Below, in pieces: positions 4,258-62,083 of a stretch of DNA of 64,000 bases. Source of the DNA: Centroscyllium fabricii (Eukaryota); NCBI GenBank assembly GCA_051313645.2, contig JBNRSN020000007.1, positions 247,132,001 to 247,196,000 of the forward strand, in the 5' to 3' direction. Numbering within the stretch: position 1 is the stretch's first letter; each line of letters opens with the position of its first letter. The translations under genes were made by a program, and so were the position numbers. The notes below the pieces were generated by a model that was given only the letters and a program-made list of their open reading frames with translations, had not been told where the DNA came from and did no database searches.

Positions 4258-4994
4258 CAGGTTGAGCACCAGTAATCCGTTACCCAAAAAACCGGCAGCT
4301 TCGAACGTCCGGCAATAATTCCCCCGACTGCGCCGCGAATGCGCAAAATGGCCGCCGCGATTGATGCTTCGGTGACTATGCGCAGATCAAACGATGAGCG
4401 CATGCGCAGATCATTCACTGGCCCTCTGAGCCCAGCCCTGCCTGTCCGAGCCCTGCCGGCCTCTCCGAGCCCCGCCCAGCCTCTCCCGAGTCCAGCCTCT
4501 CCAAGCCCAGCCCAGCCCCGCCTTTTCGAGCCCAGCCCCACCTCTCCGAGCCCCGCCCAGCACCTTCGAGCCCAGCCCCACCTCTCCGAGTCCAGCCCCG
4601 CCCGGCCTCTCCGAGTCCAGCCCCGCCCGGCCTCTCCGAGTCCAGCCCCGCCCGGCCTCTCCGAGCCCAACCTCGCCTCTCCAAGCCCAGCCTCGCCTCT
4701 CCACGTCCCGCTCCACCTCGCCAAGCCCAGCCTCTCTGAACCAAGCCTAGCCTCACCTCTTGGAGCACAGCCTCGCGCCTCCGAGCCCAACCTCGCCGGG
4801 CCTCTCCGAGGCGATCCCGGGCCTCCCCAAACGACAAGCGCATGCGCAGACCACTCAAAATGGCCGCCAGCCTTTCGCGGTGGCCATTTTGAATGGTCTG
4901 CGCATGCGCTCACCGAAGCTTCAATCATTCGGGATTTTCACTTTCCCGGCACGGGCCTGGTCCCGCTCGTGCCGGATTAACGGTGCTCAACCTG
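4258..4994. mobile_element. Tc1/mariner (Tigger/pogo-like) MITE with internal GC-rich minisatellite
   Basis: TA|CAGGTTGAGCACC ... GGTGCTCAACCTG|TA TIRs and TA TSD. Degenerate CTCTCCGAGCCCAGCC repeats at ~4420-4810. Confidence 0.9.
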
Positions 4995-11400: not shown

Positions 11401-12365
11401 AAGTACCCTAGGATGTAGATTATCAGGCCCTGGGGATTTATCGGCATTCAATCCCATCAATTTCCCTACAAACACTGATTTCATTCAGTTCCTCCCTCTC
11501 ATTAGACCCTATGTTCCCTGACATCTCTGGGAGGTTATTTTTGTCCTCCTTTGTGAAGACAGAACCCAAGTATGTATTTAATTGGTCGGCCATTTCTTTG
11601 TTCCCCATTATAAATTCCCCCGATTTCTGACTGCAAGGGACCTACGCTTGACTTCACCAATCTTTTTTTCTTCACATATCTATAGAAGCTTTTACAGTCA
11701 GTTTTTATGTTCCCTGCAAGCTTTCCCCCTCTTAATTAATCCTTTTGTTTTCCTTTGCTGGATCCTAACTGCTCCCAATCCTCAGGTTTGCTGCTTTTTC
11801 TGACCAATTTATATGTGCTCTTCTTGGATCTTATGCTATCCCTAATTTCCCTTGTTAGTGACGGTTGCGCCACCTTGTTTTATTTTTATGCCAGACAAGG
11901 ATGAACAAATTCTGTAGTTCATCCATGCGATCTTTAAATGTTTGCCATTGCCTGTCCACCGCCAGCCCTTTAAGTAACATTCCCCAATCCATCCTAGCCA
12001 ACTCGTGGCTCATACCATCGTAGTTAACTTTATTTAAATCGGCATCATCAGAGCTAATATCTTTCCTTACGATTGTGTTACTCTCCTCTTTAACCAGCAA
12101 TGCTACCCCACCTCCTTTTCCTTTTTGCCTGTCCTTCCTGAATGTTGAATTCCCAGCCTTGGTCACCCTGGAGCCATGTCTTCGTAATCCCAACTATATC
12201 ATATCCATTCAGGGCGCGACTAAACCGCTTGCCCGGGGCAAGCAAAATGAGCCTTCGGGCAAGCAAAAGAAATTCGCACTTGCCCGACCGGGCAAGCGAT
12301 GTGCGGACATGACCCGAGCCTGCACAGTGGCCAGTTTCGGCAATAGCGCTGCGGGTGTGCGAGAG

Positions 12366-12790
12366 GGGGTGAAGAGGCGGACCGGCCGGCCGCGGGGTGA
12401 AGAGGCGGACCGGCCGGCCGCGGGGTGAAGAGGCGGACCGGCCGGCCGCGGGGTGAAGAGGCGGACCGGCCGGCCGCGGGGTGAAGAGGCGGACCGGCCG
12501 GCCGCGGGGTGAAGAGGCGGACCGGCCGGCCGCGGGGTGAAGAGGCGGACCGGCCGGCCGCGGGGTGAAGAGGCGGACCGGCCGGCCGCGGGGTGAAGAG
12601 GCGGACCGGCCGGCCGCGGGGTGAAGAGGCGGACCGGCCGGCCGCGGGGTGAAGAGGCGGACCGGCCGGCCGCGGGGTGAAGAGGCGGACCGGCCGGCCG
12701 CGGGGTGAAGAGGCGGACCGGCCGGCCGCGGGGTGAAGAGGCGGACCGGCCGGCCGCGGGGTGAAGAGGCGGACCGGCCGGCCGCGGGGT
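12366..12790. repeat. 28-bp GC-rich minisatellite, 15 copies
   Basis: Unit GGGGTGAAGAGGCGGACCGGCCGGCCGC; no variants seen by eye. Confidence 0.97.
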
Positions 12791-13264
12791 CACAGCCTAC
12801 AAAGCTTATTTTGGGTTATTCTGCTGTCCTGGTGTGTGTTTTTAACAATATGCTCGCCCCTCCTCTGCTGAAGCTGCAGGCTCCTGCTGGGTCCCAGATC
12901 CATAGCACCTTACCCCAGAGGTTATTCTTCAGGCTAATCAAACACAGAGTCTGATCTTGTCCCAACGTCCAGTCAAGAAGACTTGCCATCAGCTGTTATT
13001 AGATAGCAATCAGAGTTTGGCGGGGTGCGGGGGTAACTTGGTATGATTGTCACCCTCTTAGTCCATGGGGTGCTGAGGCCAATTGTAGCCCACCCTAACA
13101 CTTGCACCAGCTGAAATCAGCCAGCTCAACAGACTAGGAGTAGAACCTGGGATCATAGAAGATAGGAGCACGAGTAGGCGGGGTGAAGAAGCGGCGATGA
13201 AGAGGTGGTGAGCAGCGATGAAGAAGCGCTCTCCGTTGGTCATTTGGCCAGGCACTGCAGTCGA

Positions 13265-40720: not shown

Positions 40721-42819
40721 CTCTTAACAAGTCTATGTAAAGAAATGTTTCCTAGTATCTAGTCATCATGCCGCAGATGCGGCCTAATCAGGAACACTGA
40801 ACAACCTCAGCATGACCTCTGGAGATTTGCACTCAACTGATTTTGGAAATTTACTCCCAACATGATAAGGAAGGTCAATCTTGGCTCATTAATCCCAACA
40901 AACCTTGCATTCCCTCTATCACATCATCTAACTGTATCTTGAATTAATCTAAGGTTTTGCCCTAGCTGAAAGACTATTCCAAGTCACTGACATCTGACTT
41001 AAATTGTTCTTTCACTAGTTTTAGCCCATACCCCTCTTGGATTACCTTGAAACCTTATTTATACCAACTTCTTTCACTGTTAAAGCGCCCCATTTTCTCT
41101 AGTCTTTCTTTGTAATTCATTGTTTGACATCAGTAAGTCCAGTGGCTGTTCTCTACACTGTCTCCATGGCTTGAATTTTTGTCTCCCTTGTGTCTTGCTA
41201 ACTAAAACTTAATTCGAGATGTGGTCTGATCAGGGTATTGTACAGTTTTCACATGACACTTTCTGTCTTGTACTGCAGTGATCTAGTGATATATTGAAAC
41301 TGTACGAGGAATCTGGTGGCCTAGATATTGCCGACCGCCAGCTTGAATCACTTGATACTGCTCCTCGAGCCCAATGGGAAGAGTCAACCTCGCAGTTGGA
41401 TTTTAGTCGCTCAAGTCAGAAAAGGAGAAGCCTCGTTGATTGTCTAGGCGCTGGTCAACATCCACCAGCACAGACTTGATCCATCTGCTATTGTGCTCCC
41501 ATTTGAGCTCATTCACCATTCACGAAGTTGGGGGATACTCGACTGCGCCTCCTGTCAGGCATATTGTGCCCTACTCCCCTCCCATGGTTAGCAGTGCTCT
41601 GCAAAATAGCTCTTCCACATCTTTGTCGTTCAGATGCAGTAGCAACAATGGTGACTAGATTTGACCTAAAACCCTTTAAAAGTAAGAACTTGTAAGCATT
41701 ACTATATAATAGTCTTTACATGGAAACTAGACCATTGCTCTTTTTGGTGGTTTACAGGATTCTTGAATCTTTTGTATGGGAGTTCTTCACAATGAGGTGG
41801 GTGATCTGTATACGACCTACTCCTACAGACACCTTGCAAATATTCTATGGCTCTGCAAGTATTGACACATGACGTATCGTCAATAAGACAAAGACGAGTA
41901 GTTACCTTAACTAGAGGCTTTTAATCACTTTACAATGGAGCTACTCTCCAGTCGAACATTGAGTACAGAATGAATGGGGGCAGGTCAGACCTCACCTATA
42001 AGGCGCTCACCTGAGGGGAGGAGTTAGAGGTGTGGCTGACCTGACCTCGCGACAGTGTCGTTATACAAAACTACATACAATGCACCCAGCCACTATACAT
42101 GCTGGTCTGTAGTGTGCTCAACTATATACACTGGTAATCATGATTACCACATTCACCCCTTCTTTGAAAATTAAGTCCGGCGGGGTGAATGGACAGAACC
42201 TGTTATTGCAAGGAAAAGAATTTTTTTTGTATAGTATGAGTCCAGCTCAACAGTTCACAATGAGTCTCTCCGGCGGTTGTGTCTGCCTTGAGGACCGCCG
42301 GGGTTCTGGTAGCGGCGCTGGTGCCGGTTGTGGCGGCGGGACCGGGTCCTCCGGCCGCTGTGCCTGCAGTGTGGCGTCTGGTTCTGGGTCCTCAGCTGGT
42401 AGTGTCGAGGGCCCCGGTGTGTGCGTGTGCCTAGGCCAGTATCCGGTGGGTTGTGGTTGATGTGTAGGCCAGTGGCCGGTAGGTGGTGGCTGGTCGGGCT
42501 GAGGCTCGACCAGGGGCTCTGCTGTGGTGCTCCCGGCGGGCGCTAGGTCCCTGATGGAAACTGTGTCCTCGCGTCCGTCCGGGAACTGCACGTATGCGTA
42601 CTGCGGGTTGGCGTGCAGCAGCTGCACCTTTTCCACCAGGGGGTCGGTCTTATGGCTGACGTATCGTCAATAATCTAATAAAACTAAAGACGCGTAGTTA
42701 CCTTAACTAAAGGCTATTATTAGCTTTACAAAGGAGCTATGCTCCGGTCGAACATCAGGGACAGAATGAATGGGGGCAGGTCAGACCCCACCTATAAGGC
42801 ACTCACCTGAGGGGAGGAG

Positions 42820-44928
42820 TTAGAGGTGTGGCTGACCTGACCCCGCGACAGTGTCGCAATACAAAGCTGTGTATAGTGCACCCAGCCGCGACACATGCTG
42901 GTTAATATTGTGCAACAATATTACGGTGGTAATAGGCATTATATAACGGTTACCATATTCACCCCTTCTTTGAAAATTAAGTCCGGCGGGGTGAATGGGC
43001 AGAGCAGTGGAGGGGAGGGGGCCTTTGAAGTCCACGCTTAGACGTTCAAAGGGGCGGGTGGCCTTAATGAGGTGTGGCGTGTCTGGCCTGTAAAATTGGG
43101 GTTTGCACTCAGCGCAAACAGGGCACTCTCGGGTCATATCCTTGATCTCCGAGATGGGGAGGCTACGGGATTTAACGAAATGGGCAAGTCTGGTGATACC
43201 CGGGTGGCAGAGGCGATCGTGGAGTTCCTTCAGCCGGTCTAACTGGGCACTGGCGCACATTCCCCTGGACAGTGCATCCGGGGGTTCATTGAGTTTGCCT
43301 GGTCGGTAAATAATGTCGTACTCGTAAGTCGAGAGCTCGATCCGCCACCGCAGGATCTTATCATTCTTGATTTTACCCTTTTGTTTATTGTTAAACATAA
43401 ACGCGACCGACCGTTGGTCGGTGAGCAGGGTAAAACGCTTACCGGCCAGGTAATGACGCCAGTAGCGCACGGCCTCCACGATGGCCTGGGCCTCCTTTTC
43501 CACTGCAGAGTGGCGAGTTTCGGGTCCCTGTAGGGTGCGGGAGAAAAACGCTACGGGCCTGCCTGCCTGATTCAGGGTGGCGGCAAGGGCAAAGTCCAAA
43601 GCGTCACTCTCCACCTGGAAAGGGATGGACTCATCAACGGCGTGCATGGTCGCCTTGATAATATCTTCCTTGATCCGGGCGAACGCCGTGTGGGCTTCTA
43701 TCGACAGGGGGAAGATGGTGGCCTTGAGGAGCGGTCTGGCCTTATCCGCGAACTGGAGAACCCATTGCACGTAATAAGAGAAAAATCCCAGACATCTCTT
43801 CAGGGCTTTGGGGTTGTGAGGAAGGGGCAGTTCCTGTAAGGGACACATACGCTGTGGGTCGGGGCCAAAGACCCCGTTTTCCACCACGTATCCGAGGATG
43901 GCGAGCCGATCTGTACTAAAGACGCACTTATCTTTATTGTACGTGAGATCGAGCCGTTTCGCCGTGTGGAGAAATTTGGCCAGGTTGGCATCGTGGTCCT
44001 GCTGGTCATGGCCGCAGATGGTCACGTTGTCCAGGTAGGGGAAAGTAGCCTGCAACCCGTTCTGGTCAACCATGCGGTCCATCTCCCTCTGGAATACCGA
44101 CACTCCGTTGGTCACGCCGAAGGGGACCCGGAGGAAGTGGTAGAGCCGACCGTTCGCCTCGAAGGCGGTGTACGGGCGATCGGCTTTCCGGATCGGGAGC
44201 TGGTGATACGCCGACTTAAGGTCGATTGTGGAGAACACCTTGTACTGGGCGATCTGGTTAACCATTTCCGAGATGCGGGGAAGGGGGTAGGCGTCGAGCC
44301 CGGTGTAGCGGTTAATGGTCTGGCTGTAGTCGATCACCATTTGCTGTTTCTCGCCAGTCTTAACCACTACGACCTGGGCCCACCAGGGGCTGGTGCTGGC
44401 TTCAATTATCCCCTCCTTCAGCATACGCCCGACCTCCGACCTGATAAATGTCCGATCCCCTGCACTGTAACGCCGACTCTTCGTAACAATGGGTTTGCAG
44501 TTTGGGTCGAGGTTGGCGAACAGCGAGGGGGGGTCGACTTTCAGGGTGGAAAGGCCGCAAGTCGGGCTCCGCTTTAAGAAGGGATTGTCCCGGCTACTGA
44601 CGGTGAGGGGGGCCAGGGTCCCGCCGAACTCCATTGTCACGCTCTTCAGGTGGCACTGGAAATCCAGTCCCAGTAAGACTGGGGCGCACAACTGCTGGAG
44701 TATGTACAATTTAAAGTTACGGTACACGCAGTGCCTGACTGTGAGCGTGACGGAGCAGTAGCCGGTGACGTCCGCCGTGTGGGACTTTGAAGCAAGGGAG
44801 ATTTGGTAGTGCGTGGGCAGGGTCTCCAGTCCGTAGCGCCGCACTGTGTCAGGGTGAATGAAGCTCTCTGTGCTTCCGGTGTCGAACAGGCAGTTGGTGA
44901 TATGGCCGTTAACTTTAATCCCCATCAT
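42820..44928 (-). CDS. pol: Gypsy Pol (protease, RT, RNase H, integrase N-terminus), running into the internal LTR
   Basis: LFDTGS protease, YLDNV RT motif, RNase H (VESDA, EKEAQA, TDQRS), HHCC; integrase breaks after SVDFKGPLPS (~43005). IN C-terminus resumes at 42247-42656. Confidence 0.9.
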   Translation of the reverse strand: MMGIKVNGHITNCLFDTGSTESFIHPDTVRRYGLETLPTHYQISLASKSHTADVTGYCSVTLTVRHCVYRNFKLYILQQLCAPVLLGLDFQCHLKSVTMEFGGTLAPLTVSSRDNPFLKRSPTCGLSTLKVDPPSLFANLDPNCKPIVTKSRRYSAGDRTFIRSEVGRMLKEGIIEASTSPWWAQVVVVKTGEKQQMVIDYSQTINRYTGLDAYPLPRISEMVNQIAQYKVFSTIDLKSAYHQLPIRKADRPYTAFEANGRLYHFLRVPFGVTNGVSVFQREMDRMVDQNGLQATFPYLDNVTICGHDQQDHDANLAKFLHTAKRLDLTYNKDKCVFSTDRLAILGYVVENGVFGPDPQRMCPLQELPLPHNPKALKRCLGFFSYYVQWVLQFADKARPLLKATIFPLSIEAHTAFARIKEDIIKATMHAVDESIPFQVESDALDFALAATLNQAGRPVAFFSRTLQGPETRHSAVEKEAQAIVEAVRYWRHYLAGKRFTLLTDQRSVAFMFNNKQKGKIKNDKILRWRIELSTYEYDIIYRPGKLNEPPDALSRGMCASAQLDRLKELHDRLCHPGITRLAHFVKSRSLPISEIKDMTRECPVCAECKPQFYRPDTPHLIKATRPFERLSVDFKGPLPSTALPIHPAGLNFQRRGEYGNRYIMPITTVILLHNINQHVSRLGALYTALYCDTVAGSGQPHL

Positions 44929-45000
44929 GGAATTTGATAGGGTGTGCGGCTTAGCCTGGTCGACCGTGGCTGAGGCCGAAGTGTGTGTGGGGGCCCTCCG

Positions 45001-46203
45001 CTAGCTGGGGCCGTGCACAAGATGGCGGCGCCCGTGGTTCGCACACAGCCGACCGTGGTGGACAAGTTGGCGGCGCCGAGGGGTCGCACATGGCTGGCCG
45101 CTGAAGACAAGATGGCGGCGCCCGTGATTCGCACGCGGCGGGCTGCGGTGGCGGTGCCCGTGGTTCGCACGTGGCGGACAGCGGTGGCCGAGTCGGCGGC
45201 GCCCGTGGTTCGCACGCAGCGGGCCGTGCTGGGCGAGATGCCGGCGTTGGGGGGCCAGCCGCGGCCGTCTTTGGCGTGGCGGTGCCCATGCCGTGTGCGC
45301 GGCCGGCCTCTGCCGTATCAGGGTGGGAGACGGGGGCGCTTGTAATCTCCCCCCGGACCGCTGCTGGGTCGCGCTGCAACAGGGGCTTACCTGAGGCCAT
45401 GGGATGGCGTTGGAGCTCTCGCAGGCCGCGCTGTTGTGTCTGGAGCTGGGCGCTGGGGCCGACTTGCAGGCCCTGGCGTAGTGTCCCTTTTTACTACATC
45501 TCTCACAGGTCGCGGTCCTCGCGGGGCATTTCGCTCGCGGATGCAGTCCCTGGCCGCAGAAGTAGCACTTTCTGTCCGCCGGCGTCTTCGCAGCTGCCGC
45601 TGCCATTGTGGAGGTCTCGACCTGTCGTGGGGCCGCCCAGGAATCGAGGGTGTCGTGTGGGCCTTGGCCGCTATACGCCTCTAGCCTGCGGCATGCTCCA
45701 TCCACCGCGTTAGAGATGGAGATCGCCTCTTCCAACGATAAAGTCTCTTTTTCCAGCAATCGCTGGCGGGCCTGGCTGGATCTGATCCCCGTCACGTAGG
45801 TGTCTCGAACGAGAAGATTCGTCTCCTCCTGCGCCGTTCGTGGCTGGCAGTCACAGGCCCGGGCGAGGGCTTGAAGCGCCAACAAATACTGTTCATTAGA
45901 CTCACCGAGCCGTTGTTGTCTGGTCGCCAGCACGTGTCTGGCATAGACCGAGTGGACCGGGCGCACGTAGCATGCCTTCAGTTTCTCCACGGCCTCTTTG
46001 TACGTTGTTGCGCCGCATTTGAAGGAGTACACCCGGCTGGAGATCCTGGACGAGAGAACGTGGAGTTTGTTCCCGTCGGTCGTCGCCTTGGCGGCCGCCA
46101 TGTAGGCCTCAACAAGGCTGAACCAATGTTCAAACGTATTGGTGGCGTCTGTTTCCTGTGGATTAATATCCAGCTTTTCGGGTTTCACAGCGCCGCTCTC
46201 CAT
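45001..46203 (-). CDS. gag: Gypsy Gag
   Basis: 400-aa ORF with CYFCGQGLHPRAKCPARTATCERCSKKGHYARAC zinc knuckles; homologous to 60403-61725. Confidence 0.85.
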   Translation of the reverse strand: MESGAVKPEKLDINPQETDATNTFEHWFSLVEAYMAAAKATTDGNKLHVLSSRISSRVYSFKCGATTYKEAVEKLKACYVRPVHSVYARHVLATRQQRLGESNEQYLLALQALARACDCQPRTAQEETNLLVRDTYVTGIRSSQARQRLLEKETLSLEEAISISNAVDGACRRLEAYSGQGPHDTLDSWAAPRQVETSTMAAAAAKTPADRKCYFCGQGLHPRAKCPARTATCERCSKKGHYARACKSAPAPSSRHNSAACESSNAIPWPQVSPCCSATQQRSGGRLQAPPSPTLIRQRPAAHTAWAPPRQRRPRLAPQRRHLAQHGPLRANHGRRRLGHRCPPRANHGHRHRSPPRANHGRRHLVFSGQPCATPRRRQLVHHGRLCANHGRRHLVHGPS

Positions 46204-47163
46204 TTCGAAAATTTTAAGTGATTAAAATTGACGTATCGTCAATAAGACAATGATGAGTAGTTACCTTAACTAGAGGCTTTTAATCACTTTACAATGGAGC
46301 TACTCTCCAGTCGAACATTGAGTACAGAATGAATGGGGACAGGTCAGACCTAGCCTATAAGGCACTCACCTGAGGGGAGGAGTTAGAGGTGTGGCTGACC
46401 TGACCTCGCGACAGTGTCGTTATACAAAACTATATACAATGCACCCAGCCACTATACATGCTGGTCTGTAGTGTGCTCAACTATATACACTGGTAATCAT
46501 GATTACCACAACACACTCCCAGGATTCCGCTGTAAATATTGACAAAGTATGGGGAACCACATTCCTAATTTGTATTTATTTCACTGCCATTTTTTGGACA
46601 TTCATTTCAAATAAGTGTATATTTGTAAGACTGTAACATTTACTAGACCTGTTGCATAAGAGAGTTTTTTGCACAGCTGCCTTGGCAGCATGGGTTGGAG
46701 CTCCTCAACTAGGTTCTCGCTCCTGCTACTAATAGTTTTAACGTGGCCCTTGCAGGGCGTGGAGGGATCTGAAGGATGAAAAAGCTACTTAACTTTCTGC
46801 AATGTTGAGCATCCTTCAAACACAGTGATCTCTCTCCTCCCAACAATCCCTTTAGGCCCTACTCTGGTTTCTTTTGGGGTTGGTTTGGGATATTAAGGTG
46901 AAGATCACAGTGATAAATGCACAGATTAATGTGATAAACTATAATCTGTGCATTTATCACTATCACAGAAATTAGCTTCAGTCAAAAATAAAATGGAAAT
47001 TGAAAGTGGCATTGTAGAAAGAAATATCCCAAGCTTTCAGTTTGGGTTTTCTCAAAGTTTTGACTACAAGGTGAAGTTTTCTTTTTCTGTTCCTCTTGGG
47101 AGGAGAAAGAATATGTCTCTGTGCACTCTCTTGTTTTACTTTACAGTAATGTGTTTTTTTCAT

Positions 47164-60090: not shown

Positions 60091-62083
60091 TGTGGTAACC
60101 ACTATATTACCACTATATTACCACTGTATAACCACTGCTAATAATGGGCTGTGCAACTGTTAGGCACAGCCCTGTTTGTTATGACACTGCCGAGAACCAG
60201 GTCAGCCACACCCCCGACTCCTCCCCCAGGTGAGGCCCCGGTATAGGTGTGGTCTGACCCAAGTTCATTCATTCCTGTACTGTAACTCGTGAGGAGAGTA
60301 GCTCCAGTCTTTAGCAATTAAAAGCCTTGTATTTCGGTACTTACTTGTCGCCTTTTAATTGAGCTAGCGACTACGCTACAATTTTAATTGCTAAACTTAA
60401 AAATGGAGAGCAACTCGGTAAAGCCTAGGGAGCTGGACGTTAGCCCCCAGGATGCCGCGGCACCAGCTACCTTCAAGCACTGGTTCGGCCTACTACAGGC
60501 CTATACAGCAGCCGCCAAGGCTACTAAGGACGAGGACAAACTACAAGTCCTGAGATCCAGGATCTCCAGCAGGGTCTTCACCCTTGTCCAGGATCTTACA
60601 ACCTACGAGGAAACTGTGGCGACCCTCAAGAAGTGCTATGAGCGCCCGGTCCATTCCGTCTACGCTCGACACATACTAGCGACCCGATCTCAGCTACCCG
60701 GTGAGTCGAACGATGAGTTCGAGCAAGCGCTCCGGGGCCTGGTGCGGGCCTGTGGCTGCAAGGGCGGATTGACTGTTGCACAGGAGGAAGACCTCCTCCT
60801 CAGGGACGCTTATGTTTCTGGACTAAGATGCGGAGTAGCCCGTCAGAGGCTACTGGAGAAGGATAACCTGACCCTTGAGGAGTCAACCATGTTAGCCAAA
60901 TCGGTGGAAGGGGCCCGTAACAAATCACAGACATACGGTGGCACAAATCAACAAGTCTACAATGTATGGGCCGCGCCACAACAGGCGTCACGGACCGAGA
61001 GCCCCACGATGGCCGCGACGGCCACCACGGACACTAAACACAAACATTGTTACTTCTGCGGCCAAGGATTGCATCCCAGAGCAAAATGCCCGGCCAGGAT
61101 TGCGACCTGCGAAAAATGCGCTAAGAAAGGACACTTTGCCAAGGCCTGCAGATCGGCTCCAGCAGCAGTTCCAAAAAGGTACAACAGTGCAGCCTGTGAG
61201 AGCAACCACCAACAGGTAAGCTACAATTGCAGTGCAATCCAGCGACGGCAAGCCGCCCCTTCCCCCATCCCGATGCAGCGGCGACCGGCCAAGCGCGACC
61301 CTACAACGCGGCCGGCTGCGTGCGAATCACAGGCACCGCCAACCAGACCACCGCGGTTCGCTGCGTGCGAATCACGGGCACCGCCAGCGCGTTCACCGCG
61401 GTTCGCTGCTTGCGAATCACGGGCGCGTCATGGCCCCTCAAACGCCGCTCCACAACGTACCGCCAGCGAGTTCACCGCGGTTCGCTGCGTGCGAATCACG
61501 GGCGCCGCCAGCGCGTCAGGGCCCCTCAGAAACGCCGCTCCACAACCTAGGCCCCTCCATGTGCGAGCCAGGGGCGGCGCCATTTTGTATACGGGGTCCC
61601 ATCAGCTGCGGGCCAGGGGCGACGCCATCTTGCATCCAGGGCCCCGCCATGTGCGAGCCAGGGGCGCCGCCATTTTGTGCACAGTCCCTATCAGCAGGGA
61701 CTGCTGCAGCCAGAACCAGAGTTAGTCAAAGCAGGCCCCATCACCTGTCTAATTCAATAATATCGATCGCTATTAATAGCCATACTGTCGACTGCCTTCT
61801 TGACACGGGCAGTACCGAGAGCTTTATTCACCCTGATACAGTGCGGCGCTGCGGACTGCAGGTCCTGCCCACCAACTACCAAGTGTCCCTAGCTTCACAG
61901 TCCCACACCGCGGACGTCACCGGCTACTGCTCCGTCACGCTCACCGTCCAGGGACGCGTGTACCGTAACTTTAAGTTGTATACCCTCAAACAGTTGTGTG
62001 CCCCAGCCTTACTAGGCTTGGATTTCCAGTGCCACTTCAGGAGCGTGACAATGGAGTTCGGTGGGACCTTACCCCCCCTGCTG
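60091..62083 (+). mobile_element. 3'-truncated Gypsy element (5' LTR 60091-60380, gag, protease), related to 41870-46510
   Basis: LTR TGTGGTAACC..GCTACA; gag from ATG 60403 (MESNSVKPRELD, CCHC knuckles); protease LLDTGSTESFIHPD; similarity ends after TMEFGGTLPPL. Confidence 0.92.

Follow-up and report, generated by a model that had tools for sequence, protein, structure and literature searches.

A widespread animal Gypsy lineage that probably primes reverse transcription with its own RNA

The window analysed here, a stretch of 64,000 nucleotides from Centroscyllium fabricii, carries two Gypsy elements, A and B, in which the primer-binding site (PBS) position forms the complement of a segment of the element's own long terminal repeat (LTR). 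This PBS–LTR pairing is a real and strongly conserved feature. Judging from sequence, we conclude that a widespread animal Gypsy lineage probably primes reverse transcription with its own RNA, a reading to which we give a probability of about three in four. Self-priming is considered likely because the register of the pairing is fixed at the LTR end, the changes on its two sides are coupled across 39 families, and no TGG is present. The initial annotation had proposed self-priming and/or occlusion of the poly(A) signal; the former is well supported by the sequence, and the latter is plausible as a second role of the same helix. Self-priming itself is already known from Tf1, and the lineage would thus use another form of a known mechanism.

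In element B, the sequence TTTTAATTGCTAAA (60382–60395, plus strand) is the exact reverse complement of the 14 nt at 60310–60323, and in element A, which lies on the minus strand, positions 46227–46216 are the exact complement of the 12 nt at 46289–46278, just as first described. In both elements the complement begins 1 nt past the terminal CA of the 5' LTR, and the paired LTR segment (hereafter, the arm) contains ATTAAA (60317–60322 in B, 46284–46279 in A). The 1-nt spacer preceding the PBS of B is A60381. When the pairing was swapped (the LTR of A with the leader of B, or the reverse), only 7 nt matched, as against 12–14 nt within each element, which agrees with the earlier remark that pairing is kept in spite of the differences between A and B. 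None of 20,000 leader shuffles gave a match of at least 12 nt, either for A or for B. No TGG follows the 5' LTR of A or B, and the distance from the LTR to the Gag ATG is 22 nt in B and 25 nt in A; both observations had been made correctly before. It should be noted that a claim of covariation has to rest on relatives, since A and B alone give few covarying columns. A location of the "PBS" inside the LTR, hinted at by a 295-nt repeat, was considered and rejected, as the 3' LTR ends in CA and is followed by the target duplication.

Element B is present in the window with its 5' LTR only and has no 3' LTR there. This LTR (TG...CA, 290 nt, 60091–60380, plus strand) was delimited from the sequence and by alignment to the LTRs of A and of a third element, C, its end being inferred from the terminal CA and the alignment with A. 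The gag and protease region of B follows at 60403–62079; its likeness to A stops at 62079, and B is a 3'-truncated copy. The reading frame is broken in a GC-rich repeat zone (units of ~45 nt) between the Gag knuckle and the protease at 61300–61730 (plus strand), and the corresponding repeats of A lie at 45001–45300 (minus strand). For the segment 60050–60500 of the window, the B family appears in contigs by the thousand in those sequencing runs where it is best represented. The depth of its LTR is several times that of the internal part, which suggests many solo LTRs.

Element A has a 282-nt 5' LTR at 46229–46510 (all on the minus strand), with the arm at 46278–46289 and its complement, after a 1-nt spacer, at 46216–46227. 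The gag gene with a CCHC knuckle (45001–46203) terminates in a stop codon and is followed by pol (42820–45000), which encodes a protease, reverse transcriptase (RT), RNase H and the start of an integrase whose core is missing. The polypurine tract (42152–42165) and the 3' LTR (41870–42151) complete the element, and a TGTGT target duplication flanks both LTRs, which are identical at 275 of 282 positions. The LTR ends of A were therefore set independently, by the 3' LTR and the 5-bp duplication. A single in-frame stop separates gag from pol in A, and the relatives mostly have one open reading frame of ~1200 aa in a span of ~4 kb.

By its structure (282-nt TG...CA LTRs, TGTGT duplication, purine tract), A is a Ty3/Gypsy element. 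The order of its pol domains according to Pfam is protease–RT–RNase H–integrase, and the best PDB match of the RT is Ty3 (E 4e-47). Among the best 120 of 2213 matches, sharks and rays supply the closest named proteins (80–81% over RT–RNase H), followed by cnidarians, Trichinella and a damselfly (58–62%). An atlas search confirmed a Gag-like protein and gave nothing further. No Chromo family was found in the full Pfam lists of two full-length relatives or in the precomputed domains of the 120 listed of 2213 matches, and the integrase tails were of low complexity in all six relatives inspected. As no chromodomain was seen, the lineage probably lies outside the Tf1/sushi chromoviruses.

For the survey of the pairing, relatives were fetched with an alignment of eight Gag N-termini, which gave 80 of the 207 confirmed metagenome loci and six prokaryote-assembly contigs. 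Together with A and B they formed 51 clusters at 85% Gag identity; three clusters without 100 nt upstream were left out, and the first id of each of the others was taken as its representative, blind to pairing. Of these 48 representatives, 37 had at least 9 perfect pairs starting one base past a CA, and 32 had at least 12 at this position, while only 27 of 2256 cross-family pairings, mostly between close kin, reached 11 pairs. When up to one mismatch per 12 nt was allowed, 39 of the 48 representatives were positive as against 59 of the 2256 cross-family pairings; complementarity is kept in most other families. The nine that failed this test comprised three with two mismatches in register and six without a match, two of the latter being matches to 5'-truncated Gag and four of these six having CA..TGG somewhere in the leader, which is not a demonstrated LTR end. 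Target duplications of 5 bp were found at 18 of the 26 loci with both ends placed (these 18 include duplicates and span five families), which confirms the CA as the true LTR end there. In all 39 positives the pairing stops one base from the LTR end, and the register stays unchanged over loops of 23–75 nt. As the initial annotation had stated for A and B, a TGG-type site is missing: none of the 39 positive families has TGG after the CA.

No tRNA genes were detected in the window and 40 loci, nor were Rfam matches found in the window. None of the relatives' loci ended in poly(A), three scans found no relatives in viral contigs, and a search for the Gag N-terminus among proteins of 96–308 aa gave none from 331 candidates. 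The six contigs from bacteria-labelled genomes (L081–L086) carry an animal retrotransposon family and are likely host contamination.

The coupling of the two sides was examined on the Gag tree of the 39 positives. Over helix columns 1–13, the LTR side required 96 changes, the PBS side 97 and both sides jointly 101, and the joint changes rose to 179 or 157 when the register was slid by one base. The covariation among family members noted at first from two elements is thereby borne out, on a weak tree (15 of 36 inner branches are open) and with columns 1–12 having helped to select the positives. Column 13 played no part in this selection; it pairs in 35 of 39 families, as compared with a mean of 24.5 and a maximum of 31 in 5000 permutations that ignore kinship. 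The coupling of LTR and PBS fades beginning at column 14. Within one young family, locus L037 (~98% identical to its siblings) differs by one base in both LTR arms and by the matching base in the PBS, and locus L030 has an arm change in both LTRs and an unaltered PBS. Since the states of L037 and L030 fit the copying of a primer into the PBS, the mechanism itself, and not selection alone, may keep the two sides coupled, although one case of each is a thin basis. In host contigs, arm variants are common at 60314 and 60315, with no partner change in the PBS among the rows listed, the PBS depth there being about one third of the arm depth.

By analogy with Tf1, the arm of the 5' LTR would fold onto the PBS, and the RNase H of the element would cut past the last A of the arm, at the junction with a small hairpin of the form GCC/ACC...GGT. 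The freed 3' end would then prime minus-strand DNA across U5; the helix terminates one base from the end of the LTR, and minus-strand DNA has to start there. Plus-strand synthesis would copy the primer back into the PBS, so that both sides would stay matched. The same helix would, in a second role, hide the poly(A) signal of the 5' LTR, whereas the copy of this signal in the 3' LTR would have no partner and stay free.

The predicted cut site is accompanied by conserved features. The last base of the arm is A in all 37 families with at least 9 perfect pairs, and GCC or ACC comes next in most. This triplet pairs with a downstream GGT/GGC to form a hairpin, and 27 of 37 families reach at least 4 bp in it, as compared with a mean of 6.6 and a maximum of 13 in shuffles. 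Its sequence is for the most part conserved, and in B (60324–60338, plus strand, directly past the predicted cut) it has only 3 bp. It may mark the cut site, by analogy with Tf1, for which a further RNA structure is reportedly needed. The whole leader does not fold more stably than shuffles do (z -1.06 to -1.81), and this second hairpin is missing from the fold predicted for B. Another small hairpin, GGAG..CTCC, lies upstream of the arm (60293–60305 in B); its stem is one pair longer in C, and the predicted fold forms it in A and not in B.

The length of the primer would depend on the transcript start. The TATA-like box TATAGG (60242–60247 in B, 46354–46359 on the minus strand in A), a putative promoter element, and CATTCATTC are invariant in the LTRs of A, B and C, whereas U3 differs in its 5' part. 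The initiator-like TCATTC (60269–60274 in B, 46332–46327 in A) resembles the initiator consensus TCAKTY given in the available text of PMC3601003. The spacing from TATAGG to CATTCATTC is 29 nt, and the start predicted for B, A60271, accordingly lies 29 nt past the TATA-like box and 53 nt ahead of the arm end. In both A and B, the TATA-like box lies 82 nt and the initiator 53 nt ahead of the end of the arm, and in locus L001 a similar pair lies 75 and 45 nt ahead of it. Such a pair was found in only 3 of 37 families. These motifs suggest that, in contrast to Tf1, transcription begins ~40 nt ahead of the paired segment. The analogy with Tf1 drawn at the outset presumes that the paired segment is the transcript 5' end, whereas the promoter motifs point to a start that may lie ~40 nt further upstream.

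An upstream start would make a primer of ~50 nt and not of 11, which is uncertain. In 12 of the 39 families, B among them, the A of an initiator-like YYAGY falls on helix position 11, which would imply a primer of the size of that of Tf1; a primer of 11 nt is disfavoured because positions 12 and 13 pair too well. As a tentative proposal, which we hold to be possible rather than probable, the lineage could have evolved self-priming separately from Tf1/sushi and in another form, with a capped primer of ~45–55 nt, a cut at the AAA|GCC helix junction inside the repeat, a helix that both primes and hides the poly(A) signal, and a PBS that is rewritten in each cycle.

Loci L002 and L012 begin at or just before the arm, but their distances of 55 and 77 nt from the LTR end correspond to word lengths often used in assembly, and these beginnings were not read as transcript starts. 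A GCCGCCAT-like motif, which we take to be YY1-like, follows an initiator-like site ~35–45 nt before the arm end in L001, L004, L008 and L081, and may mark the start sites of those families. In the U3 of A, B and C, an inverted repeat GGTCAG...CTGACC is kept around the TATA-like box (60200–60259, plus strand; 46405–46342, minus strand). Also kept in all three is CAGGTGAG after a pyrimidine run; together they resemble a splice acceptor and a donor placed back to back.

The arm is present in both LTRs, and the primer might instead be the copy in the 3' LTR, that is, the 3' end of the RNA, acting in cis or coming from the second packaged RNA. The 5' end would then stay whole, and strand transfer would have a longer repeat at its disposal; with an upstream start, ~40 nt of repeat would precede the arm, whereas a cut at the 5' end would leave for transfer no more than the few bases between the cut and the poly(A) site. 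However, the 5' arm lies only 23–75 nt from the PBS and should pair first during transcription, and Tf1 and Tf2 take their primer from the 5' end according to the available descriptions. We therefore regard a primer from the 3' LTR as unlikely.

A slightly poorer prospect is that concealment of the 5' poly(A) signal is the sole task of the helix while something else primes. In retroviruses, a hairpin can occlude the 5' poly(A) signal. Among the 37 arms, 26 contain AATAAA or ATTAAA and another 7 a variant hexamer (by a list of variants to which we added GTTAAA). Meanwhile, four arms have no hexamer of this list and keep both the pairing and its register, so that hiding of the signal is not the whole reason for the helix. 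Nor would hiding call for a helix whose end is set precisely one base from that of the LTR whatever the loop length (23–75 nt), and no other primer site is visible. The overlap of the helix with a poly(A) signal is common, yet the pairing is independent of the signal. The occlusion suggested in the initial annotation is thus plausible as a second role and fails as the whole explanation.

More improbable still is priming by a tRNA half or another host small RNA, as in some Copia groups, with the match to the LTR arising as a by-product. Priming by half-tRNAs without TGG is known (PMC6317226 and PMC10886601, in their available parts), and the arms have a common A-rich 3' end and a G at position 10 in 31 of 37 families. 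However, the PBS varies between families at most columns and tracks its own LTR, for which a host RNA gives no reason. Least credible of all is the assembly of the primer by splicing inside the LTR, to which an AG at arm positions 11–10 past a T-rich run (24 of 39 families) and the donor-like CAGGTGAG upstream in the LTRs of the window could point, but the positions that would be replaced, 12 and 13, match the LTR in its unspliced form in 39 and 35 of 39 families, respectively, and the TATA-like box is found only downstream of the donor-like site.

Self-priming from the 5' arm may be compared with known systems. In Tf1, bases 1 to 11 of the transcript form the helix with the PBS, and base 11 is followed by the RNase H cut, as the available text of PMC7175516 describes; Tf2 and Tj1 (of S. 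japonicus) are described as self-primed like Tf1 in the available parts of PMC5341516 and PMC4600332. Like Tf1 and Tf2 of S. pombe and Tj1, as so described, the lineage has no tRNA site, a PBS complementary to an LTR segment and the Ty3/Gypsy domain order with RNase H. Unlike in Tf1, the pairing here extends over 12–13 columns and overlaps a poly(A) hexamer in most families, the predicted start lies upstream, and no chromodomain was seen.

Self-priming has likewise been predicted from PBS–LTR complementarity for the Tf1/sushi and Tcn1 chromoviruses of fungi, vertebrates and mosses, and also for the TAR lineage of plants (Houba/Osr-1), which belongs to the Copia superfamily (PMC6317226, in the part available). 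The Tf1/sushi and Tcn1 groups, which thus include vertebrate members, are defined by a chromodomain and an RT clade of their own, whereas the integrase tail of the present lineage lacks a chromodomain. As TAR lies outside the chromoviruses, self-priming is known to recur.

Most copies of Skipper from Dictyostelium likewise lack a TGG-type PBS; the available text of PMC5006619 gives this chromodomain element a polypyrimidine PBS and no complementary LTR segment, unlike the lineage described here. Saci2/lennie elements have a tRNA-type PBS and mostly 4-bp target duplications according to the accessible portions of PMC4558846 and PMC12471100, whereas here no TGG and 5-bp duplications were found. 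As regards the Cigr-1, Mag and MolGy clades, motif searches in paper text and three supplement sets gave no match. In Gmr1, the integrase lies upstream of RT, whereas here it follows RNase H. A search of the literature outside subscription journals and Repbase Reports turned up no report of self-priming in a Gypsy group of animals other than the chromoviruses. The title of one Repbase Reports entry is said to announce a self-primed Gypsy of the purple sea urchin, annotated from PBS–LTR complementarity; it is possible that this element belongs to the lineage and constitutes a prior annotation of it.

In fission yeast self-priming has been proven, and for chromoviruses and one Copia group of plants it is predicted, as far as the available parts of the sources cited above describe it. 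Its presence in an animal lineage without a chromodomain, if true, would mean that self-priming arose more than once or is old, and would bear on the proposal that hairpin priming preceded tRNA priming (PMC3601003, available text). Such elements would be independent of the tRNA supply of the host and would lack the site targeted by 3' tRNA fragments (PMC7472051, in its available part). Annotation tools that require a tRNA site would overlook or mislabel them. The claim is directly testable, since an exact cut site is predicted and the adjoining hairpin is conserved.

The remaining observations concern other parts of the window. The polypurine tract and the LTR of element C (42657–42974, minus strand; a third LTR, 81% alike) lie inside the integrase of A, so that at 42657–43010 (minus strand) the 3' end of C with its purine tract and LTR stands in place of the integrase core of A. 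The LTR of C begins with TA and not TG, its arm is without a canonical hexamer, and a PBS of its own is absent. The position of C inside A likely reflects a nested insertion that was followed by a deletion. Tandem arrays with units of 28 nt and ~20 nt are located at 12282–12874 and 4424–4822, respectively.
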